A stretch of DNA of 64,000 bases from the NCBI GenBank assembly GCA_964392455.1, contig CAYMPG010000003.1, forward strand, positions 802 through 64,801, read 5' to 3'. The notes below the pieces were generated by a model, which was given only the letters and a program-made list of their open reading frames with translations, made no database searches and was not told the origin of the DNA. A program made the position numbers and the translations under genes. Positions 16,512 to 56,061 of this stretch are shown here, piece after piece (within the stretch, counting starts at the first letter, position 1; every line of letters starts with the position of its first letter). The DNA is from an uncultured Clostridium sp. Its GTDB lineage: Bacteria > Bacillota > Clostridia > Christensenellales > CAG-138.

Positions 16512-16514
16512 TAA

Positions 16515-16655
16515 GAAAATAAGATGGGGAAGCAGGGTGAAATTCCCTCGCAAGTGCGTTACCGTTACAGCCGGATTGCCATGTTGCATATTCCTTTGCG
16601 GACACCGAAGGATATGTGTTGCTGTATACCTTAATGTATAAGTATACCTCCTCAC
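16515..16655 (+). promoter_or_regulatory. Cobalamin riboswitch aptamer (second copy, divergent)
   Basis: 'GGGGAAGCAGGGTGAAATTCCCTCGCAAGTGCGTTACCGTTACAGCCGGATTGCC' shares the same core as the minus-strand copy and has the B12-box AGCCGGA. It lies upstream of cbiD. Confidence 0.75.
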
Positions 16656-31155: not shown

Positions 31156-31388
31156 TTGCGTATATTGGTGATCAGTAAGCGCACGCTCATAATTGCTGCC
31201 ATAGTTCTTCTGGTGCTCATCGTTGCCATCCTGCTGCTGCTCAGCTTCGCCCCCGATGCGGCTGCCGCCAGCTCACGCCCCATTGAGGAATACGAGCTGG
31301 AAGTCCTTGCAGGGCAAAAAAAAGAGCTGCCCATCTACAGCGTAGACCGCAGCGATAAAAAAATAGCCCTTACCATTGATGCAGCATG
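31156..31388 (+). pseudogene. 5' fragment (codons 1-77) of a split NodB-type, PdaB-like polysaccharide deacetylase gene
   Basis: The TTG start lies 8 nt after GGAGGTG. An N-terminal TM anchor is followed by 'PIYSVDRSDKKIALTIDAA'. After 31388 the frame continues into unrelated sequence for 7 codons and stops (31408-31410). The missing remainder is found at 43770..44345. Confidence 0.85.
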
Positions 31389-31407
31389 TGCTGCGGCTCA
31401 AATGTGG
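31368..31407. other. attL junction of the inserted element (crossover at or near TG 31387-31388)
   Basis: The host half is 'ccattgatgcagca', then TG, then the element half 'TGCTGCGGCTcaAATGTGG'. The 7 bp CAGCATG (31382-31388) is repeated at 43765-43771. Confidence 0.8.
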
Positions 31408-31424
31408 TAACCGCCGCCCATTAC

Positions 31425-31458
31425 AAAACCCCGCCGAATATCGGTGGGGGTATTTTTC
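31425..31458. terminator. Bidirectional hairpin terminator just inside the element's left end
   Basis: CCCCGCCGA (31429-31437) pairs with TCGGTGGGG (31441-31449). A T-run follows on the plus strand, and TTTTG follows on the minus strand. Confidence 0.6.
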
Positions 31459-31516
31459 TTTCCCTCGTCAAAGCACCTCTGCCCCAGCGTAAGGCCACTA
31501 ATGTGTCATCAAAATC

Positions 31517-32212
31517 GTTTAAGACCCCTCTGGAATTACACAGCTCTCAAACGCGGCGGCGTTCATGGCGTAGTATTCTACGGTTTAAGACCCCTCTGGA
31601 ATTACACAGCTCTCAAACATGACAAGCTCTTTCATGCGGACTTGCTTTGTTTAAGACCCCTCTGGAATTACACAGCTCTCAAACAGACGCTGGAAGAAGC
31701 AAGGGCACGCTTCGGTTTAAGACCCCTCTGGAATTACACAGCTCTCAAACTGCCGAGCCTTATGTTATCGAGAAAGATGAGTTTAAGACCCCTCTGGAAT
31801 TACACAGCTCTCAAACGGTGGCTGAGGCCGCTCCTCTTTCTCCGGTGTTTAAGACCCCTCTGGAATTACACAGCTCTCAAACGGAGCCATCCTTCCAAGC
31901 GAGCTTGACCCGGTTTAAGACCCCTCTGGAATTACACAGCTCTCAAACAAGAACTGAATATAACGAGCCTTAAAGAAAGTTTAAGACCCCTCTGGAATTA
32001 CACAGCTCTCAAACTATTTTTTATGCATTTTCTTTTTCTTATTTGTTTAAGACCCCTCTGGAATTACACAGCTCTCAAACAACCCCCCAAAGCACCTTCC
32101 GCATAGGCTCGTTTAAGACCCCTCTGGAATTACACAGCTCTCAAACGAGCCGACCTCTCAAAGGCTATCCGTGATGGTTTAAGACCCCTCTGGAATTACA
32201 CAGCTCTCAAAC
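31517..32212 (-). CRISPR. CRISPR array: 11 identical 36-bp repeats and 10 spacers of exactly 30 bp
   Basis: The plus-strand repeat is GTTTAAGACCCCTCTGGAATTACACAGCTCTCAAAC at 31517, 31583, 31649, 31715, 31781, 31847, 31913, 31979, 32045, 32111 and 32177. In the transcribed (minus) orientation it is GTTTGAGAGCTGTGTAATTCCAGAGGGGTCTTAAAC, a type II-A-like repeat. Confidence 0.98.
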
Positions 32213-32301
32213 CTCAAATTTGAAAATCGGCCCAGCCAGCCGTGTGTACTTCCAAAGGAACACCTGTGTCTTTATTATACTGTAAAACCATTCTTTTGCA
32301 A
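32213..32301 (-). promoter_or_regulatory. CRISPR leader with candidate promoter
   Basis: This is the 89-bp interval between the csn2 stop and the first repeat. On the minus strand, TTGCAA (32301-32296) is followed by a 16-nt spacer and TATAAT (32279-32274). Confidence 0.6.
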
Positions 32302-32967
32302 CTATATTTCACATAAATCCCTGTCTATAATTGTGCGCCGCTCACCGCTCAGCAGCGGATGCTCACTCCCCTCTATCATAAGTATTCTATGCTTGCGGGG
32401 GCATGTGGTATAAAAGAAATCTGTCAGCTCCTCATCTGAAAAATAGCTTCTTAAATTAACAAAGATAAACAGCTTTTCCCGCTCAAATTCTGCCACCATA
32501 TCCATATAGCTTATTATTGCATCAATATCATTTTCAGGTGCTTCCTCCACAGCAAGGTTTGCCTGTTTTAAAAAGGATGCTATGGTCAGCTTATCGCTAT
32601 CAAAGGTAAGCGGGTATTCTCCGCACAGCTCTGTCAGCAATTGCTCTATACCTGATAATACCAGGTGGTAGCGCTCAAAGTATTCGGATTCCATGGCCCT
32701 GCTCTCTATTTGGGATATTATACGGGTAAGCAGCGTCTTTTTATTGCAGGGGAAGGGAACTATCTCTGTAAACATTTCAGCGTGCTTTGAAATGCTCAGC
32801 AGCTTGCCTTCTGATGAAAGCACGCAGGTTCCCGGTTCATCACAAAGCTGACGGCGTATGTCCTTTATGAGGCTGCGGAAGGCACTTTGATTTTCAATCA
32901 CTATCGAGCAGGCGCAGCCTTCCTCAAGGGGTACAGGCGGGCTATATTGAGAAAAAAGCAGCTTCAA
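32302..32967 (-). CDS. csn2: Csn2 (type II-A adaptation protein)
   Basis: 221 aa, positioned after cas2 and before the array. 'KLFIFVNLRSYFSDEEL' parallels S. pyogenes Csn2 'KLLIFINSGAFLTKDEV'. Confidence 0.85.
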   Translation of the reverse strand: MKLLFSQYSPPVPLEEGCACSIVIENQSAFRSLIKDIRRQLCDEPGTCVLSSEGKLLSISKHAEMFTEIVPFPCNKKTLLTRIISQIESRAMESEYFERYHLVLSGIEQLLTELCGEYPLTFDSDKLTIASFLKQANLAVEEAPENDIDAIISYMDMVAEFEREKLFIFVNLRSYFSDEELTDFFYTTCPRKHRILMIEGSEHPLLSGERRTIIDRDLCEI

Positions 32968-33284
32968 AGAATCACCAGCCTTTCATCGCTAGTTACCACA
33001 TCTGTTTCAAGCCTGCCCACCAGATATTCCATGCCTGCGAATTGCTTTTCCGTAACGGTGAGCATCTGTACCAGGCCTGCCGGCGGCCTGTTTTTGCGTA
33101 CGGTATCCATTGCCGCCTTGCCTGCACCGGCATTTATCAGCAGGCGGCAGTATACCGACTCCTGCATCATTATAAACCCATTGCTTATCAGCGCCTTGCG
33201 AAAGCGCCGATAGTTTCGCCTGTCATCCGGCGTTTCTGTAGGCAGGTCAAAAAATACCAATACACGCATAAATCTGTAGCTCAT
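32964..33284 (-). CDS. cas2: Cas2
   Basis: 'MRVLVFFDLPTETPDDRRNYRRFRKALISNGFIMMQESVY' is typical of Cas2. It overlaps the cas1 stop and the csn2 start. Confidence 0.95.
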   Translation of the reverse strand: MSYRFMRVLVFFDLPTETPDDRRNYRRFRKALISNGFIMMQESVYCRLLINAGAGKAAMDTVRKNRPPAGLVQMLTVTEKQFAGMEYLVGRLETDVVTSDERLVIL

Positions 33285-34153
33285 AGCAGTGGAAACTTTA
33301 TTGCTTCAATGTCATCGCCGTTCAGTGCATCGAATACGCTCTTTGTGTATATCTTTATCGAATTGAGCACGGTCTGTTCGCTGCCATTTATGCTTACTGT
33401 ATCATTAAGCACAGCAATTACCCTGTGCTTTTCCTCAGGGCTAAAATCCCATAGCTCCATGGACAGCACCCTTTTATCTATTAGCGGCCGATATGGCTCC
33501 ATAAGGTCACAGCTCAGATTAAACTGATTGAACACATTGTCATGAAACAGCCCAAATTGCGTTAGATACCCATTTGCCGTCACCTCCCTGTTAAATACAG
33601 AAAGGATTATCCCGTAGCCATAATCCAGCGCCGCATTTATCGGATCCGGCGAAGCCCTTCTAACAAAGTCCATTCCAAACAGCCCATTGAAATAAACCTT
33701 CGCTGCATGGCCCTCCCTGTTTGTCACATCGCCAAATTCAATCTCCCCAATATATCTGGTCAGCTTATCCGCCTCGTTTTCCCTGCCGGCAGCCCGCAAT
33801 ACGCCTGCCTGGTTTTTAATCTTTTCTGTAACTATGGCCGTCCATACGTGGCCCTTGGTCAGGTCTGTCCACTGCATTTGCTGCTTTACCTTGCGTGAAG
33901 TATCGTGGCTGCCATAATACGGGCAAAGCTCTGCGGTGGGATTTCTTTTCCCATCGCAGAACACCACCCTTATCTTTTTATTCACCAGCTCGGATAACAG
34001 ATACCCCGTCATGGATACCGCAGTGCTTTCTATCATCAGCAGAGCAATCTCATCCATAAACACCCGCCTGGTCTCCTCGCCCCGTACCACAAGGTAGCCC
34101 ATTTTATAGTCCAGCTTGCATCTGCTGGAAATCACCACCGTGCGCCAGCTCAT
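33281..34153 (-). CDS. cas1: Cas1 (type II)
   Basis: 290 aa with 'GYLVVRGEE', 'NAALDYGYGIL' and 'HDNVFNQFNLSCDLMEPYRPLID'. Confidence 0.95.
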   Translation of the reverse strand: MSWRTVVISSRCKLDYKMGYLVVRGEETRRVFMDEIALLMIESTAVSMTGYLLSELVNKKIRVVFCDGKRNPTAELCPYYGSHDTSRKVKQQMQWTDLTKGHVWTAIVTEKIKNQAGVLRAAGRENEADKLTRYIGEIEFGDVTNREGHAAKVYFNGLFGMDFVRRASPDPINAALDYGYGIILSVFNREVTANGYLTQFGLFHDNVFNQFNLSCDLMEPYRPLIDKRVLSMELWDFSPEEKHRVIAVLNDTVSINGSEQTVLNSIKIYTKSVFDALNGDDIEAIKFPLL

Positions 34154-34157
34154 ATCT

Positions 34158-37100
34158 TTACAGCAGCGTCAGCAGGTTTATCGACGCCTTCTCATACAGA
34201 CCCGATGGCGATTGATCTATTATGCGAACGTCTGAGTAGCTCTTCTTCCAGTTCGAAAGGCTTGAGCTTAATGTAGGCACCCCTGCCTTTCCAACACCGC
34301 CTATGGCTGTAAAGTCACTTCCACCGCCATTCCTGCTGAATACAACAAGTATTTCAGACAGGATTTTAATTTGCTCATCAGGAGCTAAGCCAATAAACTT
34401 CTTCCGTCCGTTCACGAGCGTATCTATCACGTTGCTGACTGCAGGCCGCTTGTTGAATGGATATGCCGACAGCTTCTGCGTGAGCACATCGTATAGCTCT
34501 ATATTCTTTTCAGGTGTCAGCTTATCATAATCGGCATTCAGCTTGAGCTGCTGATTATCCCTGCGTTTATTCTGGAATGACTCTATGCGCTTAATGTATC
34601 TCTCATCCTCCGGCTCCAGCCGCAGCGGCATCAATGGTGATACAAGCAGCAGCTTTCCGCCGCTGGCTTTTCCGGACAGAGCCACACGGAAGCCGTCCAG
34701 CGACAGAATGGTATTTACCCTGAGTATGCGGGCTTCCATCGGCAATTCCACGCTATCAACAGCCTTGCCGATGACTTTTTCTATGGCCGCCCTGGTAACC
34801 TCTCTGGCTGCCGCATAGCTTTCAGCAAACTTTGCTGCCATTATCAGCTCAATAGGAACTATCATCAGCTCGCTTTTTTTACCCAGATAATACTTTGCCA
34901 GCACGAAGAACGTGGCTGTAGGCTTTCTGTATCCACCATACTTCTCAGGTGGCAGGTTGTTTTTGCGGGGCAGCAGTTCGCTTTTTAATGTAGCGCCCAT
35001 TGGCTGCTGATCATACAGCGAGCCTTTGCGGCAGAATGCATACCGTGTTACGTGGATATGGTTCTTCTGCACTATTCGCTTGACCCTGCCGATATCTGCC
35101 TCTCCGCGCCATACGCATCCGTTTTTCCCTACCGGATGGTCAAATATCTCCTTTGTCTTCATGCTGTATTTCTGATCCAGCCTGAAGTAGTTTTTATTGA
35201 ATTTTTCATGGTATACGTTGCCTACCACCACATTCAGGTAAGCATCCTTGGCATGGTGCAAATCATTCACCGTGCGGCATTTCAGCATTTCAAATTCATG
35301 ACGAAAATCAGCTACCAGCCCAGCCTTTACGTACACTATCTCGGTATCAGGATAACGCTCCTTAAGGATAGATGTGACTGCCTTGGTGGACTGTCGGGTC
35401 TCTACCAGCTGGCGCTGTATAAAGCCCATCAGCTCATCATCGGTAAACTGCGTGGTTCTGGTAAGCCTGCGATACTTTTCTTCGGTAATAAGATTCTTAT
35501 CATGCAGCTTTTTCCAGAACACGCCCATGCGGCTTCTTATATCCGCCTTAATCGGGTATTTGTCCCCTTTATCTCCGTTACACTCAGAACGACACAGCAC
35601 CTTGTTGTTGAGTATACTGTCATCCTTTACCTTGCACTGGGGATAAATGTGATCCACGTCATAGATTTTTTGATCCGATAAATGTTCCAGCGCAATAGGC
35701 TCCCCGCTATACATACACTTGCCCAGCTGCATAAAGTAAAGGTACAGCTTGTCGCTTTGCAGGGCGTTATCGTCCTTTGTCTCCAGCAGGTTTTTCAGTT
35801 CACGTACTTCGCTCTCACTAAACTCCTTATACGCTTCCAGTATCTGAGTGCGGCGTGACTTTGTGCGCTTTCCCTTTTGTTCCTCGTTGGCTCCCCGTGC
35901 CATTTCTACAAATATCCTGCTGGGTGGCGCTCCCAGGGCTTTCACAACGTCCTTTACCACATCAAGCGTGCGATATATCTGACGCCGTACCGTATTGGAT
36001 AAATACAGCTCATCCATCCGTTTGGACAGGCTCTTTGGGTTTTCTCTATAATACTCGGTTACTTCATTTTTGATATTATCTGCAAATGTGAACTTATCCG
36101 TCAGCAGCTCCATGATGGTATAGTTGGTTTCCCACATAGCCTGCAGCATGGTGAATACCTGGCCCGTACCCGAATTCCTTTCCATTCCTTCAATTTCACA
36201 GAGGAGTCTGCGTGAAAGCCTCCCGAAGTCCTTAAACTTCTGATTGGAAAGGTATTTGGCATCTTCCGTGCATATATTGGGAAATTCTTTTGATATCCAT
36301 CGGATAAAGCGTGCCTTGTCCTCGGTGCAGGTGATGCGCTCTATAATCTGCTCCGCCTGATCCACCGTTAGCATTCCTGCATCCAGGAGCTTCCGGAAAG
36401 CATGCCATGGTTGCAATGAAGACTTTATGCCCTCAGTATCCACTCCGCTCAGTATATCGGAGCTGAGCATGTATCCTTCGCTTATGCAGAACTCCTTCAG
36501 TGCTTTAAAGGTTACACGTTTTTTTCTTTCAAATAGCTCACGGTATATGCTTTGCTTCTGTTCTACAGTGATTGGGATGCCATTTATTTTTATAGGATTG
36601 ATTTCATTAAGAACAGTAAACTTTGTATAATACAGCGAATTCTTGGGCAATACATACTCCGAAGGGAGATATGTACAGCGGCCAATCATATTATGAATAA
36701 ACCTATCCTCGCTCTTGTCCAGATCCACCATATCCTCAAAATTCCACGGGTATATCCTGCCTGCCTTTCTTTCCAGCCAGGCATAGCTGCTGCGATTATT
36801 CAGCGGCCCTACATAGTATGGAATTCTAAACCTGAATACGGATATTATCTTTTCAGATACAGTAAGCCCGTCGCTATCCCTTTCCCTGAGAAATGGTAGA
36901 TATTGCTCTGCATTTTCCAGTATTTTCTTCAGCTCCACCAGATAAAGCTGATATGGTATGACACGGTTGTCTGTGTCCTTCTGCTTCGGCATAAATGTAT
37001 ACATCTCCAGCCGGGCAAGCATATCATCATATTCTGCTTTGTCAGCCTGCTGCACATCAATATTCTTTACTATTTTCTTTATATAATCGCAAAAGTCCGT

Positions 37101-38243
37101 TTTTTTCGCATATTTGTCCGTCTTCTTTCCTTTGCCAGAGGAATGGTGCGAATATGCACAGTAATTCTTTTCTGTTGCGTCATTAAACACTTCATCGTAT
37201 TTACCCGGTGCGTATTTTTTAACAAAGCCTTTTAGGTAAGCAAGGTCGGCTTTATGCTGCTGGTATATTTTTACCTTGGCGCTGGATATATACTTTTCCT
37301 CCTGAAGAACATCGGTAAGCACAGACCAATCGTACAATTCCTTCAGCTTGCGTACCAGCTCTGCATCATCGCCCAGCTGCATAAGTACAGACTCCAATTT
37401 CCCTTCATCGCCGCCGAGATCTATGGACTCAGCACTTGCATACTCGTCCGCCTTATGCGGGAAAAGCTTTCCCGGCATCACCTTGCCCCCGCACAAAAGC
37501 GATATCATGCCTGAGCGAGATATTATCGGAGCCGCCTTATCCTCATCATCAAGGTGCATATCGGTCGGCTTTTTGCCATCAAATAAAAGCTCATTAAATG
37601 CTTTCACCTTATCGCTTATGCGAAGCTTTGTTTTGAGTATGCGGGCAAAGTCCTCTACGTTACAATACCAGGGCTTTTCCCCATCAAACCAGTTTATAAA
37701 GCCATCATATATTTCGGATATATCAGTAGCAGCCTCTACGTTATCCTCGCTGACCGAGCTGAGAAAATGCCCTCTATGAGCCACCAGCCATGCACAAGCA
37801 ATATATACCAGCCTCACATCATGGGGTTCGTGTGATTCCATCAGGTCAACGATAAGGTGGTGAATAGTTGGATAGGCCTTATAATAGTCCTTTTCACTAT
37901 AGTCAGCATCATTAAAGTACACACCCTCAGAGCCGGTTGTGGACTTGTCCTCCTGCCATAATGCACTTTCGCGTATGCGGATGAAAAATTGCGGATCTTT
38001 AGCCGTTATCGGTACAGCTAACAATTCCTGAATAAGCTGTACCCGCTGCTTACGCCTATCAACACGCCGCCGTGCGGTACGATTTGCGCGGCGTTCTTCC
38101 GAAAGGGCGGCACTATCAAAAGTCATGACACCAGCCATGGGCTCTCCTTTAAATTTTTGGAGGTTGTATTCCGTATCGGTAACAGCATAGCCTACAGAGT
38201 CAGTGCCACAATCCAATCCCAGATAGTATTCTTTGTTTTTCAT
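34158..38243 (-). CDS. cas9: Cas9 (type II-A, 1361 aa), nuclease motifs intact
   Basis: RuvC-I is 'YYLGLDCGTDSVGYAV'. HNH is 'DVDHIYPQCKVKDDSILNNKVLCRSECNGDKGDKYP'. The RuvC-III region is 'NDLHHAKDAYLNVVVGN'. 'IPYYVGPL' is also present. Confidence 0.97.
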   Translation of the reverse strand: MKNKEYYLGLDCGTDSVGYAVTDTEYNLQKFKGEPMAGVMTFDSAALSEERRANRTARRRVDRRKQRVQLIQELLAVPITAKDPQFFIRIRESALWQEDKSTTGSEGVYFNDADYSEKDYYKAYPTIHHLIVDLMESHEPHDVRLVYIACAWLVAHRGHFLSSVSEDNVEAATDISEIYDGFINWFDGEKPWYCNVEDFARILKTKLRISDKVKAFNELLFDGKKPTDMHLDDEDKAAPIISRSGMISLLCGGKVMPGKLFPHKADEYASAESIDLGGDEGKLESVLMQLGDDAELVRKLKELYDWSVLTDVLQEEKYISSAKVKIYQQHKADLAYLKGFVKKYAPGKYDEVFNDATEKNYCAYSHHSSGKGKKTDKYAKKTDFCDYIKKIVKNIDVQQADKAEYDDMLARLEMYTFMPKQKDTDNRVIPYQLYLVELKKILENAEQYLPFLRERDSDGLTVSEKIISVFRFRIPYYVGPLNNRSSYAWLERKAGRIYPWNFEDMVDLDKSEDRFIHNMIGRCTYLPSEYVLPKNSLYYTKFTVLNEINPIKINGIPITVEQKQSIYRELFERKKRVTFKALKEFCISEGYMLSSDILSGVDTEGIKSSLQPWHAFRKLLDAGMLTVDQAEQIIERITCTEDKARFIRWISKEFPNICTEDAKYLSNQKFKDFGRLSRRLLCEIEGMERNSGTGQVFTMLQAMWETNYTIMELLTDKFTFADNIKNEVTEYYRENPKSLSKRMDELYLSNTVRRQIYRTLDVVKDVVKALGAPPSRIFVEMARGANEEQKGKRTKSRRTQILEAYKEFSESEVRELKNLLETKDDNALQSDKLYLYFMQLGKCMYSGEPIALEHLSDQKIYDVDHIYPQCKVKDDSILNNKVLCRSECNGDKGDKYPIKADIRSRMGVFWKKLHDKNLITEEKYRRLTRTTQFTDDELMGFIQRQLVETRQSTKAVTSILKERYPDTEIVYVKAGLVADFRHEFEMLKCRTVNDLHHAKDAYLNVVVGNVYHEKFNKNYFRLDQKYSMKTKEIFDHPVGKNGCVWRGEADIGRVKRIVQKNHIHVTRYAFCRKGSLYDQQPMGATLKSELLPRKNNLPPEKYGGYRKPTATFFVLAKYYLGKKSELMIVPIELIMAAKFAESYAAAREVTRAAIEKVIGKAVDSVELPMEARILRVNTILSLDGFRVALSGKASGGKLLLVSPLMPLRLEPEDERYIKRIESFQNKRRDNQQLKLNADYDKLTPEKNIELYDVLTQKLSAYPFNKRPAVSNVIDTLVNGRKKFIGLAPDEQIKILSEILVVFSRNGGGSDFTAIGGVGKAGVPTLSSSLSNWKKSYSDVRIIDQSPSGLYEKASINLLTLL

Positions 38244-38280
38244 ATTGACATCCTCCGGAAAGATATGGTATTTTGGTCAT

Positions 38281-38399
38281 GTAAGAACAGTCCCCTCTGG
38301 ACTTACACAGCAAGTTCAAATAAGATTTCATCGAAATCGTCAGCTTGTCTGACCGTACAAGAGTACGACTTAAAGATGCCCGATTGGGTGTCTTTTTTT
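38281..38399 (+). ncRNA. tracrRNA (divergent from cas9)
   Basis: The anti-repeat 'CCCCTCTGGACTTACACAGCAAGTTCAAATAAG' is complementary to the crRNA repeat with the usual bulge. It continues like the Sp tracrRNA 'AGCAAGTTAAAATAAGG'. It ends in the hairpin GCCCGATTGGGTG plus T7 (38392-38398). Upstream are TTGACA (38245-38250) and TGgTATTTT. Confidence 0.75.
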
Positions 38400-38698
38400 G
38401 TTTGTTTTCGCAGGGGTTCTTTCAGATAGACGGTTAATTCTTTTTTCGATATGGTAAGATGTGTGTTGATTATACTCTATTTTTCTCCATATCGCAACAA
38501 ATTATCTTGTGGCAGCTCGTATAATTTTGCTTTTATTTTACTCCTGTACATTTTTTCCTGTTCGGATGCATTTTATCAACAATTATAATGTATTTTTGTC
38601 AGGTAAGCACACAGCCCTAAAGCCGAACCCGAGCAGCCTATTTATGTGCCTTGAAAGGCGCTCCCCGCCATAACCATATTTTCCCTGTACTCCGGGCT

Positions 38699-40204
38699 TT
38701 ATTCGCCCCACCTGTAGCGTATTTGGACAACGCCATTTGGAAATACCTTTACACAATCAAGTATTATGCCTATCGTTGCCCGGTCCAGCTTTATAATGGC
38801 TCTTTCATTCGCCAGCCTGTTCAGCCACTGTGCTGTACAGGGAGCGCTTTCTTCTTCGCAGATGGTCTGCCGCAGCTTCTCCATGCGATGCTCCAGGGCT
38901 GCCTGAATTTCTGTAAATTCATTACGGTTCAGCTTATTATTCTTATATCTCTCATAGGCATACCGCTTATCCATGGCAAGGCCGGACATGGCAAGCGCCA
39001 GCGCTGCGAGGCTTTTCTCTTTTCTGCGCCGTGCGTCCTCTGCCATACTGCCGCATATACCGGCTACGTCTGCTTTTTCAATTAGGCGATTTACATCCTC
39101 CAGCACAATGCGGCTCAGCTTTGCTTCATATATTCTGTGGCTGCCGCAGGCACATGGCCCGCCAGTTTTATACCGTGTACAGAAATATGCCCCTCTACCA
39201 TGGTAATTTACCAGCTTCATCCTGCCGCCGCAGGCTCCGCAGTATATCAGCCCAGCGAAAAGGCTGCCTGACCCACGAAATGCCCTGCCAGTGCTGCGCC
39301 CGGCAAGCATTGCCTGCGCCTGCTCCCATTCCTGCCGCCCGATGATTGCGGGATGAGTATCCCGATGGATGATCCATCGCTCCCGTGGAATGGAGAAAGC
39401 CCTATCATGCATGCTGCTCTTTCTGCTTTTGCCTTCAGGCGTATCCCCTGCATATACAGGGTCACGCAGCAGCCTATCCACGGAAAATATGCTCCACGCC
39501 CAGTTTTTTGTATTGGGTGCAGCCCTTTTATAAAACCCGCTTTCTGCCCGCCTTACCCCCGGGCAGGGTATTTCCCGCCGGTTCAGTTCGCTTGCAATGG
39601 CGGTTTTGCCCATGCCCCCAAGATACATGGCGTATATCTGCCTTACAGTTTCGCTGTCGCCATTTGGAATAAGGCTGCCATCTCCACCGGCTGCTTTGTC
39701 ATAGCCATACGGCGGCGATGGGCAAAGGTACTTCCCCTGGGCTCTGCGGGTGCTTAAGGCCGTACGCACCTTTTTTGAAATATCCTCTGCATACTGGGCA
39801 TTCATAAGGTTAACAACTGGAAGCCTTATGCCATCATATGGGCTCGTGACGCTATCCATATTGTCATTGATGGCGATAAAGCGCACGCCAAGGCGGGGAA
39901 ATACCCGCTCAAGATATTCACCCGCCAGTATAAGGTCGCGGCCAAAGCGGCTAAGGTCCTTTACCACCACGCAATCTATGCAGCCCGCCTCGATATCCCG
40001 AATCATCTCATTAAAGGCAGGCCGGTCAAAGCATACGCCGGAATAGCCATCATCGGAATAATGCCCTGCTATGCTCAGCTCTTCGCTGCGGAGGCAATAC
40101 TCCTCCAGTAGCTGCCGCTGCACCCGTATGCTTTCGCTGGGCGCATCCTCCCCATCCTCCCTGGATACCCTTTCATACAGAGCCGCCCTGTATACCTTCT
40201 GCAT
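38699..40204 (-). CDS. Large serine recombinase (501 aa)
   Basis: The N-terminal resolvase domain has 'AALYERVSREDG..SIRVQRQLL..DDGYSG' and 'VVVKDLSRFGRD'. A recombinase domain and the zinc ribbon 'CGACGGRM..FCTRY..CACGSHRI' follow. The C-terminal coiled-coil tail is TnpX/TndX-like. Confidence 0.9.
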   Translation of the reverse strand: MQKVYRAALYERVSREDGEDAPSESIRVQRQLLEEYCLRSEELSIAGHYSDDGYSGVCFDRPAFNEMIRDIEAGCIDCVVVKDLSRFGRDLILAGEYLERVFPRLGVRFIAINDNMDSVTSPYDGIRLPVVNLMNAQYAEDISKKVRTALSTRRAQGKYLCPSPPYGYDKAAGGDGSLIPNGDSETVRQIYAMYLGGMGKTAIASELNRREIPCPGVRRAESGFYKRAAPNTKNWAWSIFSVDRLLRDPVYAGDTPEGKSRKSSMHDRAFSIPRERWIIHRDTHPAIIGRQEWEQAQAMLAGRSTGRAFRGSGSLFAGLIYCGACGGRMKLVNYHGRGAYFCTRYKTGGPCACGSHRIYEAKLSRIVLEDVNRLIEKADVAGICGSMAEDARRRKEKSLAALALAMSGLAMDKRYAYERYKNNKLNRNEFTEIQAALEHRMEKLRQTICEEESAPCTAQWLNRLANERAIIKLDRATIGIILDCVKVFPNGVVQIRYRWGE

Positions 40205-40206
40205 GG

Positions 40207-41778
40207 CTATGCATCATCCCGAGAGCAGGCCCCGGCAATATCCGAAAAGCGATAGCATATCTTTACACAGTCATCATTGTACACATATATGCCCTCCACC
40301 GTTGCAGCAAGCGTCACCCGGTCCAGCGATTCTATTCGCCTCTGCTCAATGAGCTGTCCTGCCCATTTTTTACTTGGCAGGGCTTGCTGCTCCACAATCT
40401 CATTCTCCACCTGTAGCTGCCGCCTGAGGGCTTCCTCGCCTGCCTCATACTCTGCCCTGTATGAAATATAATCCTCGCCGGAAAGCAGCCCGGCCTTATA
40501 ATCCTCATAAAGGCTGCGGCGCAGTCTCTCCATTCGCTCAATGGATTTTTGTATCCGCTCTTTTTCTGCCGTGTGCCGGGTGGGCGGCACTGTCTTTGGT
40601 ATTCTTATGCTGCTCATATCAGGTATGGCTTCAAGCATGGAGTTCAGATCGCCAAGTAATATGGCCGCCACAGTGCTGCGCCATATCCTGCTGCCGGAAC
40701 AGGCCCCTGTGCCATATCGCTCATAGCTGCCGCAGGAATATTTCGCCTTTTCCCCCTTGCCACGGGACACCATGCTCCGGCCGCACAGCCCGCATTTTAT
40801 AAAGCCCCTGAGCGGATCCTCCAGCACGGGGCCATGGCTCCTCTCCCTCACCTTAAGCAGCCGCTGTACCCTCTCCCACTGTTCAGCCGAGACCACCGGG
40901 TCATGGGTGTTTTGCTTAACTATCCATTTATCCCGCTCCTGCAGCCGGGCTTTGCCATGCATGGCTGGCCGGCAGTACTTTCCCTGCACCATGTGGCCTG
41001 CATATACGGGATTGCACAGTATCCTGTGAATGGTGGAATACGTCCAGTAGGTGGTACCATCCAGCTTAAGTCCGTTTTTATAGTTTTCCCCCATAAGCCG
41101 CTTGTATTGGCTGGGGCAGGGTATACCCTCATCATTCAGTCGACGGGCAATGGCATCCTTGCCCTGGCCCCCTTCAAACATATCGTATATCCTCCTCACC
41201 ACCCCTGCTGCCCCCTCGTCAATCACAAGATGGCTATGGGCCTCAGGGTCACGGCAATAGCCATAGCTGCAAAACGCCCCTATAAACTCACCCCGTCTGC
41301 GCCTTGTGTCGAAGGAGCTCCTTATCTTCCCGGAAATATCCCTGGCGTATTGAGAATTGAATATATTCTTTATTGGCAGCATCATGTCATATGCTCCATT
41401 GATGCTGTCCACATTGTCATTTATGGCGATAAAGCGCACGCCCTTCTGGGGCAATATGCGCTCAAGATACCTGCCGGTATCTATATAATCCCTGCCAAAG
41501 CGGCTCAAATCCTTTACGATGATACAGTTTATCCTGCCTTCCTCCACAGCCTCCATCATCTGCCTGAATGCAGGCCGTTCAAAGCTGGTGCCGGTAAAGC
41601 CGTCATCCACATAGTGGCAGGCTATCTCCATATCCTCCGCCTGATGGCAGTAGCTTTCCAGCATATTTAGCTGGCTGGTAATGCTGTCGCTCTCCGCCTT
41701 ATCCCCATCCTCACGGGAGAGCCTTGCGTACAATCCGCATCTGTAAATCTGCCGCCCGGGCTTTGCCATATCCTGCAC
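40207..41778 (-). CDS. Large serine recombinase (523 aa), tandem paralogue
   Basis: 'CGLYARLSREDGDKAESDSITSQLNML..DDGFTG', 'IIVKDLSRFGRD' and the zinc ribbon 'CGLCGRSM..YSCGSY..GACSGSRI' are present. Its stop is 2 nt before the downstream recombinase start. Confidence 0.9.
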   Translation of the reverse strand: MQDMAKPGRQIYRCGLYARLSREDGDKAESDSITSQLNMLESYCHQAEDMEIACHYVDDGFTGTSFERPAFRQMMEAVEEGRINCIIVKDLSRFGRDYIDTGRYLERILPQKGVRFIAINDNVDSINGAYDMMLPIKNIFNSQYARDISGKIRSSFDTRRRRGEFIGAFCSYGYCRDPEAHSHLVIDEGAAGVVRRIYDMFEGGQGKDAIARRLNDEGIPCPSQYKRLMGENYKNGLKLDGTTYWTYSTIHRILCNPVYAGHMVQGKYCRPAMHGKARLQERDKWIVKQNTHDPVVSAEQWERVQRLLKVRERSHGPVLEDPLRGFIKCGLCGRSMVSRGKGEKAKYSCGSYERYGTGACSGSRIWRSTVAAILLGDLNSMLEAIPDMSSIRIPKTVPPTRHTAEKERIQKSIERMERLRRSLYEDYKAGLLSGEDYISYRAEYEAGEEALRRQLQVENEIVEQQALPSKKWAGQLIEQRRIESLDRVTLAATVEGIYVYNDDCVKICYRFSDIAGACSRDDA

Positions 41779-41781
41779 AGA

Positions 41782-41913
41782 TTATGCCTCCGGCTGCCTG
41801 TCCTGGTGGGCCTTTATCAGCTCTATCACCACCTGCTCAGGGCTCTTTTCGCCGGAAAAAAACCTTACCACCTTTATGCCGCCTTCCATTTCATCGTTTG
41901 CCCGGGTATCCAT
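41782..41913 (-). CDS. Small ORF (43 aa) immediately upstream of the recombinase pair; possible directionality/accessory factor
   Basis: The product is 'MDTRANDEMEGGIKVVRFFSGEKSPEQVVIELIKAHQDRQPEA'. GGAGGAGG lies about 7 nt before the ATG, and the stop is 3 nt before the recombinase ATG. It is below the ORF-track length cutoff and was found by hand translation. Confidence 0.45.
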   Translation of the reverse strand: MDTRANDEMEGGIKVVRFFSGEKSPEQVVIELIKAHQDRQPEA

Positions 41914-42014
41914 AGAGCGCCTCCTCCTTTTTTCTTTTATAAATCTCTATTTCGCCCATACGGCCCATATGAATGGTTTCACAAATAAAATCCCTGGCCT
42001 GTGCTGTTTATATG

Positions 42015-42050
42015 CAAAAACCCCACGGGCTGCATTTGCACCCATGGGGC
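42015..42050 (-). terminator. Rho-independent terminator after the cNMP-binding genes
   Basis: On the minus strand, CCCCATGGG-loop-CCCGTGGGG is followed by TTTTTG. Confidence 0.65.
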
Positions 42051-42085
42051 TTTGCTAAATTCAATGGGCTGTCTACGGGCTGGGG

Positions 42086-42586
42086 TCAGTATATGCGCCC
42101 ATTGATGTATGTATCCGATATGGCCTCCACATAGTCGTTTATAAACTTGCCAACCTTTTCCCAGAACATTCCCTCCCGGGGCTTATCTTCCTCCTCCTTC
42201 TTTACGGCCTCTGCCACCGCCCGGCAGGTCTCCAGGTAATCTCTGGTAAGCTCCCGCGTGCGCCGGCTCAGGTTTTTCATAATGCACAGCAGCGCCTCAG
42301 GGTCATCTCCAAAGTAATCTGCAAAGGCCTCCCCGGTGACCAGCCTGGTTTCAACATCATCCAGCGCAACTGCCGTGGCAGATCGGCGCATGGAGTCCAC
42401 CAGGCCAATTATGCCCACAGTGGCGCCGGGGCCGCCCTTTACCTCGGTAAGCTTGAATTCATCCGGCATGCCGTAGTTTTTATATATGCCCACCGTGCCG
42501 CTTCGCAGGTCATACATCCACATTTCGAAGCTGCCCTCTTTATATATGACATCGCCCTTTTTAAACAGGCGGGTGGTATCTTCCAT
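42086..42586 (-). CDS. Cyclic-nucleotide-binding-domain protein without a DNA-binding domain (166 aa)
   Basis: 'FKKGDVIYKEGSFEMWMYDLRSGTVGIY..VGIIGLVDSMRRSATAVAL' is a Crp-like beta-barrel. It is followed only by a helical tail. ATG at 42586 lies 1 nt after the upstream stop. Confidence 0.75.
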   Translation of the reverse strand: MEDTTRLFKKGDVIYKEGSFEMWMYDLRSGTVGIYKNYGMPDEFKLTEVKGGPGATVGIIGLVDSMRRSATAVALDDVETRLVTGEAFADYFGDDPEALLCIMKNLSRRTRELTRDYLETCRAVAEAVKKEEEDKPREGMFWEKVGKFINDYVEAISDTYINGRIY

Positions 42587-42587
42587 T

Positions 42588-43013
42588 TTACTTTTCCTCC
42601 ACTGCCTTTTCCCCTTGTGAGCTAAGAGCCTCTGCAAGGGCACTGCGGGCCTCCATGTAATCTCTGGTGATATCACGGATGCGCCTGCACATATTCTGTA
42701 TAATATCCACCACCCTCTCAGGCCGCTCATTCAGATAAAACCTGAAGGTCTCTCTTGTGATTATCTCAAGCCTCGTTTCCCCATCCATGGCTATTGCCGT
42801 GGCGCTGTGAGGCACCTGATCCACAAAGCTCATTTCTCCAAACACCTCATCGCCACGGCGCAGAGCCAGCATTTTTTCATTCTCCGTGCCGTAGTCCACA
42901 TATATGCCCACGCTGCCCCAGCGTATATCATACATACACTCGGCAGGCTCTCCCTGCCTGAATATTATCTCTCCCTTTTTATAGGTTCTATATTCCCTGC
43001 TTGATGCTGCCAC
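42588..43013 (-). CDS. Cyclic-nucleotide-binding-domain protein without a DNA-binding domain (141 aa), paralogue
   Basis: 'YKKGEIIFRQGEPAECMYDIRWGSVGIYV..FGEMSFVDQVPHSATAIAM' is present. It shares the helix 'RRIRDITRDYMEA' (versus 'RRTRELTRDYLET') with its paralogue. The GTG start is uncertain. Confidence 0.7.
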   Translation of the reverse strand: MAASSREYRTYKKGEIIFRQGEPAECMYDIRWGSVGIYVDYGTENEKMLALRRGDEVFGEMSFVDQVPHSATAIAMDGETRLEIITRETFRFYLNERPERVVDIIQNMCRRIRDITRDYMEARSALAEALSSQGEKAVEEK

Positions 43014-43058
43014 CCTGCAAATTCCTGCCTTTCATAATGCTGCCTGTCAAATGCCCTT

Positions 43059-43592
43059 TTACACGCGCCTGCCCATATCATAGGCATCCGCCATGGCCTT
43101 TGTACCCTTTATTTCTCCCTTTTCATAAACGCCCATGCCGCATATCACGCCCATTTCCCTTGCGCCCTCTATGCAGTCAGCATAGCCTCTCAGGCAGGCC
43201 AGCGGCGTATCCGCAGAAGCCAGCTCCTCATCCGCCGCAGTCACTATATAATACAGATCCTTGTCCTTTACCTCAGTCCAGCGGGCGACAGTTCTATCAA
43301 TAAGTGCCTTAAGCTGGGCGCTGATGGAATAAAAGTAGACGGGGCTTGCAAGCAGGATAACATCTGCATCTATCATCTTTTGCAGCACCTGACCCATATC
43401 GTCATCTATAACGCAGCTTCCTTTTTTACAGGCATAGCAGCCCCTGCAAAACCCTATATTTTTCTCGGCCACCCTTATCTTCTCCACGGTATGGCCCATT
43501 TCCATTGCACCCCGCATAAATTCATCGCAGAGCATATCAGAATTGCCGCCCTTTCGGGGACTGCCGGACAGTATCAATACATTTTTACCCAT
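43059..43592 (-). CDS. Flavodoxin-like fold NAD(P)H-dependent FMN reductase/iron-sulfur flavoprotein family protein
   Basis: 'KNVLILSGSPRKGGNS' and 'DADVILLASPVYFYSISAQLKALIDR' are present. GGAGG lies 8 nt before the ATG at 43592. Confidence 0.8.
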   Translation of the reverse strand: MGKNVLILSGSPRKGGNSDMLCDEFMRGAMEMGHTVEKIRVAEKNIGFCRGCYACKKGSCVIDDDMGQVLQKMIDADVILLASPVYFYSISAQLKALIDRTVARWTEVKDKDLYYIVTAADEELASADTPLACLRGYADCIEGAREMGVICGMGVYEKGEIKGTKAMADAYDMGRRV

Positions 43593-43661
43593 TTTATTGC
43601 CTCCACTTATCATACTGGCTGCATCACACAGCCTCTGCCCCCATAGCTCGAGCGCACCTTA

Positions 43662-43691
43662 AATATACAATGAAACGCCTCTGCATTTCAA
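43662..43691 (-). promoter_or_regulatory. Candidate promoter for the flavodoxin/cNMP operon, just inside attR
   Basis: On the minus strand, TTGAAA (43691-43686) is followed by an 18-nt spacer ending in TG and then TATATT (43667-43662). Confidence 0.5.
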
Positions 43692-43744
43692 CAGTCTTCC
43701 GTCTGAAGCCTGTCTTAAAATGCCCCATATTCCATACATGCTTT

Positions 43745-43785
43745 TCCATCCACATTATCAGCCTCAGCATGGGAAGACGACAAGA
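43745..43785. other. attR junction of the inserted element (crossover at or near TG 43770-43771)
   Basis: The element half is 'CCACATTatcAGCCTCAGCA', then TG, then the host half 'ggaagacgacaag', which resumes the deacetylase reading frame. Confidence 0.8.
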
Positions 43786-44345
43786 CTCCATTCATACTGG
43801 AAACGCTGGATAAATACGGCATAAAGGCCACATTCTTCCTCTGCGGTTTTTGGGTGGAGGCATACCCCGATGAGGTAAAGCAGATATTCGAGGCCGGCCA
43901 CCAGCTTGGCAATCATACCTCCACTCACCCTCACATGAACCAGCTCTCGGTCTCCGAGATAAAAAAGGAGCTCACCCATTTTGACGACATGGTGGAAAAG
44001 CTCACCGGCCAGCGCACCACCGCCTTTAGAGCCCCCTACGGCGAATATAACGACACCGTTATCACCACCGTAAGGGATATGGGGTATGAAGTATACCAGT
44101 GGAGCATTGACACCATCGACTGGCGGGAGGAGCGCAGCGCACAGACCATACTGGATACGGTGCTGCCAAAGCTGCACGATGGCTGCATAATCCTCTGCCA
44201 CAACAATGGCTATAAAATAAAGGAGTATCTTCCTGCGCTCATTGAAGCAGCCCAGGGACAGGGATACAAATTCGTTACGGTAAGCGAGCTCACGCTCAGC
44301 GGCAATACCATAATAGATGTAAACGGGGTGCAGAAGGCGGCATAA
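43770..44345 (+). pseudogene. 3' fragment (191 codons) of the split PdaB-like polysaccharide deacetylase gene
   Basis: The frame reads 'WEDDKTPFILETLDKYGIKATFFLCGFWVEAYPDEV..GHQLGNHTSTHPHM..RAPYGEYN..WSIDTIDW..ILCHN'. These are NodB motifs 2-5. The in-frame stop upstream at 43704-43706 lies inside element sequence. The ORF-track ATG at 43854 is internal. Confidence 0.85.
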
Positions 44346-44731
44346 TAGTCTCCCCCACTATATCGTCCAAACGCAGTCACATTATTGCTGCAAAGTAGCC
44401 TGTTTGTCACTTTATAGGAAGGGGCTGGAATACTCTTCCAGTCCCTAGATATGTTCTTAAATAAATCTGCGGCCAGTCATGGGCTGCCTCCCACCTCAGA
44501 TTATCCACAACATTATCCGGAGCTTTACCTTGTCTTTATACTAATAAACAGAGAACGTCATGTCTTTTTTCGGCAGCATGCACAAATAATCTTCTAACGG
44601 CAGCTTCGAAATACGCATATAGCCAGCAATGCCTATTACCACATATATCTGAACAAACTCAAAAGGAGCGTCCCTTTATGACACTCCTTTTTTATTTCTA
44701 ACTGTCAGCACATGGTCTAATAATAATATCC

Positions 44732-45682
44732 TTACATCTCCGCCCATCCATGCAGCTTCTTTAATCCACACTCTGCCACAGCCGCACCACCCATAAGACC
44801 GCCAAACTGGCCAAACCGGGTAGGCTGAATGACTAGATGACGATTTGCATTTTTGTAAATGGACTGATCAATCTTTTGCAGCATGGCCTCTTTAAACAAA
44901 TCAAATGACAGGCTCACACCTCCGCCTATTATCACCTTGCTGGGATTTAATATATTGCATGCCGCAGCCAACGCCTTGCCAATATAGTATCCCTCCAGGC
45001 GATACGTTTCCAGCGCTGTTTCATTGCCTCTACGTGCAAGGCCAGCTATAAGCTCTGCATTTGCCGGTATACCATCTATCAGCTCAGGGCCACCCAGCTC
45101 AATAAAGTTTCTCGCAATGGCAGGCCCGGCAGCATACATTTCCAGGCAGCCCCTTGCGCCGCAATTGCATCGTCTCCCGCCATCCACTACAGTAACGTGG
45201 CCAAGCTCGCCTGCATTTCCCGCCATACCGTAGTATATTCTGTCTTTCATAAACACTGCGCCGCCGCAGCCATTTGAAACAGTAAGATATACAAAGTCCG
45301 TTACATCGCGGCATTGGCCATACAGTCTTTCTGCCAAAGCGCATGCCTGACCATCATTGTCAATATAGGCCGGCAGATTAAATGCCTCCGTGAGTTCGGC
45401 TGCCACGTTTATGCCTCCCACACCTGAAAAACACGCCTCTACCCATACGCCATTGGCCGGGTCTGCCAGGCCCGGGATAGTTACCCCTATTGCCACAGGC
45501 AGCAGTTCACCATGTATTTTCAAAAGCTCTTTGGCAGAGGCTATTATGCTGTGCATTATTCCTCTCCCTGTAAGCTCTTTCCATTCGCCTCTGATACTGT
45601 CCACGATGTTTCCATAGCCATCCACCAGCCCAACAATATATTTTGAGCCGCCTATGTCTATAGATAATACAACATCTCTCAT
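44732..45682 (-). CDS. ROK family sugar kinase
   Basis: 'VLSIDIGGSKYIVGLVD', 'DNDGQACALAE' and 'GHVTVVDGGRRCNCGARGCLE' are present. There is no N-terminal HTH. Confidence 0.85.
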   Translation of the reverse strand: MRDVVLSIDIGGSKYIVGLVDGYGNIVDSIRGEWKELTGRGIMHSIIASAKELLKIHGELLPVAIGVTIPGLADPANGVWVEACFSGVGGINVAAELTEAFNLPAYIDNDGQACALAERLYGQCRDVTDFVYLTVSNGCGGAVFMKDRIYYGMAGNAGELGHVTVVDGGRRCNCGARGCLEMYAAGPAIARNFIELGGPELIDGIPANAELIAGLARRGNETALETYRLEGYYIGKALAAACNILNPSKVIIGGGVSLSFDLFKEAMLQKIDQSIYKNANRHLVIQPTRFGQFGGLMGGAAVAECGLKKLHGWAEM

Positions 45683-45775
45683 GTACTCTCCCCCCACCCA
45701 TTAAGACACGCAAGCCCCGGTATGCCCGAGGCTTGCAAACCTGTTCTGTAATTTTTATTCTTTCACAATTTACCC

Positions 45776-46765
45776 TTATTCTGTTTTTAGGGCCGAATCG
45801 AATGCGATATCAGAGGGTTCAAAGTTTATCTTTTTTGTAAACTCATAAGCCTCAGTAGCTCCAAAGGTGCGCTCCATTCCACTATCCTCCCATTCCACAG
45901 AAAGGGGACCATGATAGCCCATCTGGTTCAGTTCGCGAATGATGCCATCAAAATCCACATTGCCATGGCCCAGAGACACAAAGTTCCAGCCGCGGCGGGT
46001 ATCGCCAAATTCTATATGGCTGCCCAGTATACCTGCCCGTCCGTCCAAAGTGACCTTAACATCTTTCATATGTACATGATATATCCTGTTTGAAAAATCG
46101 CGCAGGAATACGCAGGGATTTACCCCCTGCCATACAAGATGAGAGGGATCAAAATTAAGTCCCAGGGTAGGACGGTGATCAAACACTTCAAACAGCTTCT
46201 GTGTGCTGTAATAATCAAATGCTATCTCCGTAGGATGCACTTCCAACGCAAACTTCACGCCACATCTGTCAAATTCGTCAAATATGGGAGTCCACAGCTC
46301 TTTTATCTTCGCAAAGCCGGCATCTACCATACTCTGGGGGGTCTGCGGGAAAGAATACCAATAATACCATATGGGAGAGCCCAAAAAACCGGTAACTACC
46401 TTTATGCCCAATTTATGTGCGGCCCTTGCTACCACCTTCATTTCCTCTATAGCCCATTCCCTTATGGCCTCTGGCTTGCCCGAAAGAGCCGCAGGGGCAA
46501 AATTATCCAGGCGTTCATCCCAGTTATCACCCACGCACTGTCCTACAAGATGTGCACCAAGTGCCCAGCACTGTAAGCCATATTTTGCCAGGGTAGCCTT
46601 AAAGCTTTCAGCATAGCCGTCATCATCCACGACCTTATGTACGTCCAGATGGGCATGACATGCTATCTCCAGCCCGTCATAACCGATCTCACTTGTAAGC
46701 TTACAAAGTTCCTCCAGGGACATATCGCCAAACTGTCCTGTTGTTATGGTGATGGGTCGTTTCAT
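45776..46765 (-). CDS. Sugar phosphate isomerase/epimerase (xylose isomerase-like TIM barrel)
   Basis: 329 aa with 'FALEVHPTEIAFD' and 'IYHVHMKD' typical of the AP endonuclease 2/TIM-barrel family. Confidence 0.8.
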   Translation of the reverse strand: MKRPITITTGQFGDMSLEELCKLTSEIGYDGLEIACHAHLDVHKVVDDDGYAESFKATLAKYGLQCWALGAHLVGQCVGDNWDERLDNFAPAALSGKPEAIREWAIEEMKVVARAAHKLGIKVVTGFLGSPIWYYWYSFPQTPQSMVDAGFAKIKELWTPIFDEFDRCGVKFALEVHPTEIAFDYYSTQKLFEVFDHRPTLGLNFDPSHLVWQGVNPCVFLRDFSNRIYHVHMKDVKVTLDGRAGILGSHIEFGDTRRGWNFVSLGHGNVDFDGIIRELNQMGYHGPLSVEWEDSGMERTFGATEAYEFTKKINFEPSDIAFDSALKTE

Positions 46766-46775
46766 GAGTGCCTCC

Positions 46776-47816: not shown

Positions 47817-47859
47817 ATCTTTATATCCTTTCTCGTATTTTAGAGTTTACTTTCGTACT

Positions 47860-50344: not shown

Positions 50345-50534
50345 ATATCGTCTATTCTCCCTTCAAAAAAATTCCATTGCATATACATTAGCGCCAGCTT
50401 GTCTGGCGTTGTATTCGATATTAATCCAAGTCTATATAATTGTAGGTATACTAAAGGCCGTATGCCTTTGACATGTTTTAAGAAAAACAGGCCGGCCGGC
50501 AATGGCCGGCCTGTCCTTTGAAAGAAAAACTTCT

Positions 50535-51626: not shown

Positions 51627-51692
51627 TACAACTTTCCTCCTTGGAAAATATTATATTTGATAATCGGCCGCTAAGCCGCATTATCCACTGTA

Positions 51693-52667: not shown

Positions 52668-52677
52668 TTTAATCCTC

Positions 52678-54653: not shown

Positions 54654-54659
54654 ACCCTT

Positions 54660-56045: not shown

Positions 56046-56061
56046 TTTTTCCTCCCATACG

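Follow-up and report, generated by a model that had tools for sequence, protein, structure and literature searches.

The window analysed here is a 64,000-nt stretch from an uncultured Clostridium sp. (order Christensenellales, CAG-138; contig CAYMPG010000003.1 of assembly GCA_964392455.1). It contains a module of three closely spaced reverse-strand genes, namely an open reading frame (ORF) of 43 aa and two genes for TnpX-like large serine recombinases (LSRs), termed LSR-A and LSR-B, within a gene-intervening element that splits a PdaB-like deacetylase gene (Table 1). Three nucleotides separate the stop codon of the small ORF from the GTG start of LSR-A, and two separate the LSR-A stop from the ATG of LSR-B. 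A GGAGG motif is located 8 nt upstream of the LSR-A GTG, within the small ORF, whereas the alternative LSR-A start ATG 41769 has no ribosome-binding site (RBS) at a useful distance; LSR-B has no clear RBS of its own in the window. The Pfam domains Resolvase, Recombinase and Zn_ribbon_recom were found in both recombinases, which have diverged to 37% identity and align from end to end. An earlier note, made from the letters of this DNA alone, had described two full-length three-module recombinases, the same gaps of 3 and 2 nt and a strong RBS before the small ORF, and all of these were borne out.

The possibility raised in that note, that one of the two enzymes is catalytically dead, did not hold, as the nucleophilic serine is present in both LSR-A (YARLS21RED) and LSR-B (YERVS14RED). 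Both proteins have the three domains, the nucleophilic serine and the conserved arginines expected of a large serine recombinase. In alignments of 22 LSR-A relatives and nine LSR-B relatives, this serine, the arginines of the LSRxGRD motif (LSRFGRD in LSR-A and LSR-B) and the four cysteines of the zinc ribbon are invariant in both clades; the B clade retains Y10, R12, S14, D17, R86, R89 and the four cysteines. The closest relative with a solved structure is the catalytic domain of TnpX (2mhc; 105 bits for LSR-A and 99.7 bits for LSR-B). Exact look-ups of LSR-A, LSR-B and the Cas9 encoded in the same element returned no match, and none of the LSR-A relatives detected among phage and plasmid sequences came nearer than 38%.

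The two fragments of the deacetylase gene lie on the forward strand at the ends of the element. The 5' fragment, which directly follows the cobalamin operon, was found by tblastn with the uninterrupted 5' part of a homologue from a viral contig (L275; E 5e-8), and GGAGG is located 9 nt before its TTG start. Joined at the TG dinucleotide shared by the attachment sites attL and attR, the fragments give an in-frame protein of 268 aa that matches positions 1-190 of 191 of the PdaB family TIGR02764 with 201 bits; we call it PdaB-like because this score is below the cutoff of 237. The core CAGCATG is common to attL and attR. The attP site rebuilt from them is a 50-bp imperfect palindrome, with proximal arms AGCCTCAGCA and TGCTGCGGCT that are complementary at 9 of 10 positions and distal arms CCACAT and ATGTGG offset by 1 nt. 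The element with a palindromic attP proposed in the earlier note was thereby confirmed and its ends mapped, as was its placement of the recombinase genes in the middle of the element, about 2 kb from attR: the small ORF lies 1.86 kb from attR and the module 7.3 kb from attL, since a 7.3-kb Cas9 locus stands between LSR-B and attL. Only one attL/attR pair is present.

The locus has the features of an intervening element, namely a split sporulation gene that is restored in frame, an internal recombinase and an inverted-repeat attP around a short core in common with attB. It does not have those of a prophage: structural and replication genes are absent from the element, which besides the module carries only cas, cNMP-binding and FMN reductase genes, and no phage or conjugation genes were found anywhere in the window. 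Overall, the window looks chromosomal, with the cobalamin operon, sugar-utilisation genes and a type II-A CRISPR-Cas locus. Two other assignments were considered. The region 43720-43769 was rejected as a deacetylase gene start with a 1-nt frameshift, as it is element DNA (the P arm), and a look-alike half-site at 42059-42076 was treated as a chance match. Repeat searches for attachment sites among the intergenic regions gave only matches at the level of chance.

Table 1. Features of the gene-intervening element and its boundaries in the window
Feature	Position	Strand	Remarks
Gene-intervening element, 12,383 bp	31389..43771	-	Bounded by attL and attR
attL	31363..31412	+	Gene B arm, centre TG 31387-88, element P' arm: ATAGCCCTTACCATTGATGCAGCA TG TGCTGCGGCTCAAATGTGGTAACC
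attR	43746..43795	+	Element P arm, centre TG 43770-71, gene B' arm: CCATCCACATTATCAGCCTCAGCA TG GGAAGACGACAAGACTCCATTCAT
Rebuilt attP junction			CAGCCTCAGCATGTGCTGCGGCTC
Restored attB			GATGCAGCATGGGAAGACGAC
PdaB-like deacetylase, 5' fragment	31156..31388	+	TTG start, membrane anchor, ends ...KKIALTIDAA
PdaB-like deacetylase, 3' fragment	43770..44345	+	WEDDKT... to stop
Small ORF, 43 aa	41782..41913	-	ATG 41913, TAA 41782; candidate accessory or directionality factor
RBS of small ORF	41920..41927	-	GGAGGAGG, 6 nt before ATG 41913, read from the sequence
LSR-A, 523 aa	40207..41778	-	TnpX-like large serine recombinase; GTG 41778, TAG at 40207
LSR-B, 501 aa	38699..40204	-	Second TnpX-like recombinase; ATG 40204, end 38699
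FMN reductase	43059-43613	-	Pfam; between attR and module
Two cNMP-binding proteins	42588-43013, 42086-42586	-	Pfam; between attR and module
Type II-A CRISPR-Cas locus	31516..38403	-	Between LSR-B and attL
CRISPR array	31516-32212		36-nt repeats spaced 66 nt apart
csn2	32302-32967	-	Pfam
cas1	33281-34153	-	Pfam
cas9, 1361 aa	34158-38243	-	Promoter 38497-38469
tracrRNA	about 38281-38403	+	Anti-repeat, own promoter and terminator

The same gene is split in the same way at many other loci. Among the 58 fetched loci with a recombinase scoring at least 600 on the LSR-A profile, 24 have a deacetylase homologue within 6.5 kb of the recombinase. All LSR-A-linked copies begin exactly at WG.EDT and are devoid of the signal anchor and the SFDAA codons, and at more than 15 loci a 5' fragment ending in ...FDAA or a 3' part starting with WG.EDT is found beside LSR-A-clade genes. 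The 5' fragments occupy the far end of the element in six loci (L014, L015, L019, L023, L039 and L040) and also occur beside LSR-A-clade genes in L011, L031, L032, L037, L045 and L094. In L089/L090, the same three-gene module ends at such a fragment, 350 nt after LSR-B; a 78-aa ORF there is this fragment. The sister elements measure 2.7 kb (L015), 3.7 kb (L014, in Flavonifractor hominis CLA-AP-H34) and up to 11 kb (L039), and what the genomes have in common at the DNA level is confined to the small ORF, the recombinase that follows it and the deacetylase fragments; in the two smallest, no gene apart from the small ORF and the recombinase has a counterpart in other elements. The element-side arms have a distal CCGCAA/TTGCGG motif in common, and the proximal arm of the pair-bearing elements is GCTG(A/C)GGCT rather than GGGTGA.

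LSR-A is the orthologue of the sole recombinase in many of these sister elements, which use the same target codon. The question of the earlier note, whether both enzymes are needed for the single attP, can thus be answered in part: LSR-B is not needed to find the site. From this common design across loci we conclude that a family of non-phage elements splits the PdaB-like gene and that the LSR-A clade and its small ORF provide the module for their integration and excision. The family appears to be new and widespread, and consists of small gene-intervening elements in gut Clostridia (Oscillospiraceae and Lachnospiraceae).

A second insertion hot spot of this deacetylase gene lies precisely behind the IQWDVD codons (ATHCARTGGGAYGTGGAY). 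It is used in L015, L017, L018, L034, L040, L093 and L096 and in the IMG/VR loci L260 and L275. The latter two viral contigs carry a different large serine recombinase (N-terminus ...IYARQSIDKKDSISIESQI) at the IQWDVD junction, and one of the same kind is present inside the L040 insert. This break point was rejected as a site of LSR-A, since IMG/VR viral contigs with the different recombinase at their junction use it too. A duplicate of the N-terminal part of the gene within the element was likewise rejected, as the halves flanking the second break point diverge at an equal rate.

The first homologues of the small ORF were 42-45-aa ORFs immediately upstream of the LSR-A orthologues in L005 and L006. 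With a profile built for this family, copies were detected in 20 loci, at a distance of 3-47 nt before the recombinase gene. When the 560 recombinase genes fetched were surveyed, 25 of the 31 with an LSR-A profile score of 745 or more had a match to it upstream, as against none of the remaining 529. The core motif is V.R.F.G..S.E.(V/L)...LI..H, with a divergent form, Y.VEREFLGK.SVEELL.RI.K.H, at the equivalent position in the Lachnospiraceae relatives, and R17 and H36 are nearly invariant among 31 sequences. Synonymous sites of the 24-codon core have reached saturation across lineages (pS 0.72), and its non-synonymous sites are under constraint (pN 0.37). The small ORF is, by these comparisons, a real conserved gene; the earlier note had allowed that it might not be conserved in related elements, and the profile search found homologues adjoining the related recombinases. 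Its similarity to anything else is below detection: no match was obtained in Pfam, NCBIfam, PHROGs or PDB, a word-based homology search recovered its own cluster only, and phmmer gave 0 matches in 1.84 billion proteins. A single-sequence AlphaFold model (helix-loop-helix, pLDDT 73) was judged too weak and was left unused.

The pairing of LSR-A with LSR-B is restricted to a smaller group. Besides its own cluster, eight matches scored higher against LSR-B than against LSR-A, and tree placement added P0131 to the B clade as a ninth member; when metagenome and viral contigs were scanned with an alignment of this clade, no true B orthologue emerged, the best match being 38% identical. Wherever the context of an LSR-B orthologue is readable (L089/L090 and L092), the order small ORF, LSR-A, LSR-B is found. 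L091 also carries the pair, with an LSR-A cut by the contig end, and so does L003, which is a second strain of the species of the window and has the module too; P0006 with P0129/P0203 and P0008 with P0131 are additional pairs by inference. The pair hence recurs in at least four other lineages (L089/L090, L092, L091 and L003), and the A-B order with an overlap or a 2-nt gap is seen in at least five. The junction between the two genes takes the form of the 2-nt gap, of an ATGA overlap or of an overlap of 14-26 nt.

In a neighbour-joining tree, the LSR-A proteins from pairs form one subclade, which also takes in the single-recombinase locus L005 and P0004 (a protein whose gene context was not read). 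All LSR-B proteins group in a single clade, outside the LSR-A proteins as a whole, and the A and B trees agree in three sister pairings. Between the window and L003, where the synonymous divergence (dS) is about 0.25, the ratio of non-synonymous to synonymous substitution rates (dN/dS) is 0.127 for LSR-A and 0.15 for LSR-B, the latter from the 82 readable codons; the B clade evolves faster. The agreement of the two trees, the overlapping or abutting genes and the purifying selection on both lead us to regard the pair as old and functional. These sequence comparisons rule out a chance juxtaposition and a decaying copy as explanations of the pair, and we infer that LSR-B is an old paralogue that co-evolves with LSR-A, has its catalytic residues intact and is translationally coupled to it.

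The earlier note had set the pair against the one recombinase of most skin/SPbeta-type elements and named CcrA/CcrB as the best-known case of pairing. Pairs and triplets of LSRs are not rare: 133 single, 50 double, 77 triple and 24 quadruple LSR runs were counted in the 253 loci, which form a biased sample as they were fetched by recombinase homology, and published cases comprise the serine integrase triplets of Streptococcus integrative and conjugative elements (ICEs) (PMC4701971) and the girAB pair in the gin element (PMC5595907). LSR-A and LSR-B fall outside the recombinase-triplet clades in the tree. Tandem LSR triplets are very common in contigs of these Clostridia (loci L052-L088 and many viral loci), and in many of the triplet loci an ORF of DUF6870, a family without known function, precedes the first gene. 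The small ORF has no hmmscan match to DUF6870 (PF21757), and the hhalign comparison is not significant (probability 0.4%, E 0.16).

Taken together, the three genes probably make up the machinery for site-specific recombination in a non-phage, skin/gin-type element, which interrupts a PdaB-like sporulation deacetylase gene. Recombination of attL with attR at the shared TG would release a 12.4-kb circle carrying attP, and the same event would restore the in-frame 268-aa deacetylase gene. LSR-A, whose orthologues alone serve the same site, is probably the core enzyme, that is, the integrase and excisionase. LSR-B most likely joins its complex in the manner of CcrA/CcrB, because it is coupled to LSR-A, co-evolves with it and is catalytically intact. 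For the directionality factor, the small ORF is the strongest candidate: its position is conserved, only one other gene besides it is common to the smallest elements and the rest, and GirX provides an analogy; like GirX on GirC, the 43-aa protein would act as an excision factor on the recombinase and not on DNA. Directionality factors bind at the junction of the coiled coil and the second DNA-binding domain. A binding region on the recombinases that is common to such factors has been described (PMC12286644). Expression of the module, and hence excision, would take place in the sporulating mother cell.

Several observations weigh against this interpretation. No excision product or empty site was seen, so that activity is a deduction from the sites and genes. 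The LSR-A-only sister elements share the target codon, and LSR-B is not obviously required; the symmetry of the rebuilt attP fits a single protein species on both arms. The small ORF has no detectable similarity to any known directionality factor in the four databases named above, and its dN/dS between the window and L003 is near 1, with only five differences. Its co-translation with LSR-A is not what one would expect of a directionality factor, except where the whole operon is turned on for excision alone. Finally, no sigma-70 promoter was found upstream of it, in a search that took in sigma-70 only and not the mother-cell sigma factors.

Given the symmetric attP and the single-recombinase relatives, LSR-B may instead serve another reaction. 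LSR-A would then integrate and excise alone, as it seems to do in the single-LSR-A elements at the same codon, and LSR-B would act in the capture or release of an internal cassette, e.g., the Cas9 locus, or on a second target. The 7.3-kb Cas9 locus differs from the recombinase genes in GC content and occupies exactly the interval from LSR-B to attL, which is only 350 nt long in the relative L089. We consider this alternative unlikely, although it deserves weight, as no second att-like site pair was found in the element and LSR-B is tightly coupled to LSR-A in translation in all lineages, which speaks for equal amounts of the two in a single complex. A combined form, in which LSR-A and the small protein carry out developmental excision while LSR-B mediates uptake or release of cargo such as the Cas9 locus, would make the heteromeric system an intervening element and a cassette carrier at once; we think this rather improbable. 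If true, Cas9 immunity would reside on a sporulation-controlled element, retained in the spore line and lost from the mother-cell chromosome.

It is also improbable, and slightly more so, that the module is a locked-in, immobile relic kept by read-through into the cas9 operon or by chance. The same upstream neighbours (the deacetylase 3' fragment, the FMN reductase and two cNMP-binding genes) are present in L003 and in three short contigs from other samples, with DNA divergence of up to about 6%, and the stretch from LSR-B to the cas9 promoter revealed no terminator; the dN/dS of 0.13-0.15 nevertheless argues for continued use, and the att sites are intact and match precisely with an in-frame junction. 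Still more doubtful is a role of one recombinase as a non-catalytic regulatory or structural subunit, for which the missing RBS of LSR-B in the window and the small, faster-evolving B clade could be cited: neither clade shows any variation in the catalytic residues or the cysteines of the zinc ribbon, and both proteins are under purifying selection. That LSR-A and LSR-B come from two juxtaposed or nested elements is hardly credible, since, common as tandem accretion at hot spots is (L025 has two LSR-A-like genes with a small ORF in between), the A-B order with its overlap or 2-nt gap holds across at least five lineages, the two trees agree and there is a single attL/attR pair.

We therefore return to the proposed skin/gin-type module, whose nearest known counterpart is the gin element of B. 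cereus. There, GirC alone integrates, whereas GirC together with the 42-aa GirX (BCE4620), a protein without conserved motif, excises the element and rebuilds gerE in sporulation; girAB are dispensable for the gerE rearrangement and their transcripts were undetected (PMC5595907). The element of the window resembles gin in its non-phage nature, the splitting of a sporulation gene, an LSR with a partner of about 42 aa and no known motif (a likeness of the small ORF to GirX by description), the extra tandem serine recombinase genes (girA/girB in gin) and an attP with an inverted repeat around a short common core. It differs in its target (the PdaB-like gene, not gerE), in a small ORF directly upstream of and translationally coupled to the recombinase, and in a second recombinase that is co-translated and co-evolving, whereas girAB are dispensable and without detected transcripts.

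The skin element (SpoIVCA) and SPbeta (SprA/SprB) likewise rely on LSR excision to rebuild a sporulation gene in the mother cell and need a small directionality factor, for which the window offers a candidate, but they are prophage-derived, 48-134 kb in size and have one recombinase. SprA reaches only 55-57 bits against LSR-A and LSR-B, and the small-ORF profile returned no SprA-SprB (YotN) fusion chain from PDB, which holds such chains. Like CcrA/CcrB of SCCmec, which are co-expressed and act jointly, LSR-A and LSR-B are adjacent and coupled. Ccr enzymes also mobilise CRISPR-Cas cassettes (PMC11470126). LSR-A and LSR-B are not orthologues of the Ccr enzymes, as neither reaches the NCBIfam cutoffs for CcrA, CcrB or CcrC (113 and 76 bits for CcrB with a cutoff of 900; 40 and 53 bits for CcrA with a cutoff of 700). 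The SCCmec target is rlmH, not a sporulation gene, and SCCmec has direct-repeat arrays where the present element has one attL/attR pair.

TnpX of Tn4451/Tn4453, which provides the closest solved catalytic domain, acts alone in a small transposon with low target specificity; we know of no PdaB target or LSR pair for it. The ICE triplets resemble the present module as tandem co-evolving recombinases at an element end with, in the fetched loci, a short conserved ORF (DUF6870) upstream of the first gene; they differ in that LSR-A and LSR-B lie outside their clades and the small ORF has no detectable relation to DUF6870.

Systems of this kind are known (skin, SPbeta, vfbin, vrin and gin), whereas the target gene, the small-ORF family, the co-evolving recombinase pair within such an element and the Cas9 cargo are new. 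A full-text literature search did not bring up this target, found no report tying pdaB to serine recombinases and yielded nothing on DUF6870, and to our knowledge no other sporulation gene-intervening element with a full Cas9 system has been described. Pairs of recombinases and directionality factors are sought as genome-engineering tools, and the module offers a compact set of parts: a recombinase, a candidate directionality factor of about 40 aa and mapped 50-bp att sites. The A+B variant and its single-recombinase sisters at the same site provide a natural comparison for the contribution of a second co-evolving LSR, which has so far been answered for CcrAB only, and the 50-bp att sequences make the heteromer and directionality-factor questions directly testable.

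The remaining genes of the element fall into two groups. Between attR and the module, the FMN reductase and cNMP-binding genes (42086..43613) have the same order in strain L003. The two cNMP-binding proteins, of 166 and 141 aa and with an identity of about 42%, are stand-alone and encoded in tandem with 1 nt between their genes, and a related gene follows the recombinase triplet in L079. A 26-nt inverted repeat with a 15-nt perfect core (41244-41269 and 42782-42807) connects the LSR-A gene with the gene of the 141-aa cNMP-binding protein; about 0.1 such matches are expected by chance, and it has no apparent function. Between LSR-B and attL, the Cas9 locus has a GC content of 0.43-0.49, against 0.55 in the recombinase genes. 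A Cas9 50% identical to that of the window is encoded near an LSR-A-clade gene in L016. PADLOC matches of the genes neighbouring the module are at the domain level only. In L091, a 629-aa protein (4722-6611) downstream of the closest LSR-B orthologue (61% identical) matches OloA of the Olokun defence system nearly end to end (PADLOC E 1.5e-14), which hints at defence genes as recurrent cargo. L089 has five or six iteron-like repeats (TTGATTAACAYGATTTT) at 7120-7331, between LSR-B and the element end, at a spacing of 33 nt or multiples thereof; nothing similar occurs in the window.

Outside the element, a 13.5-kb block of the window (44347-57873) with ROK regulators, a sugar ABC transporter, a xylose-isomerase-like protein and a SIS/HAD protein is missing from L003, where the deacetylase stop is followed almost directly by a lacto-N-biose phosphorylase gene; no repeats were found at its break points. 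Further upstream, two back-to-back cobalamin riboswitches (Rfam Cobalamin and AdoCbl-II; 16217-16395 on the reverse and 16510-16589 on the forward strand) control divergent operons, one for CbiK and an ABC transporter and the other the long cob operon.

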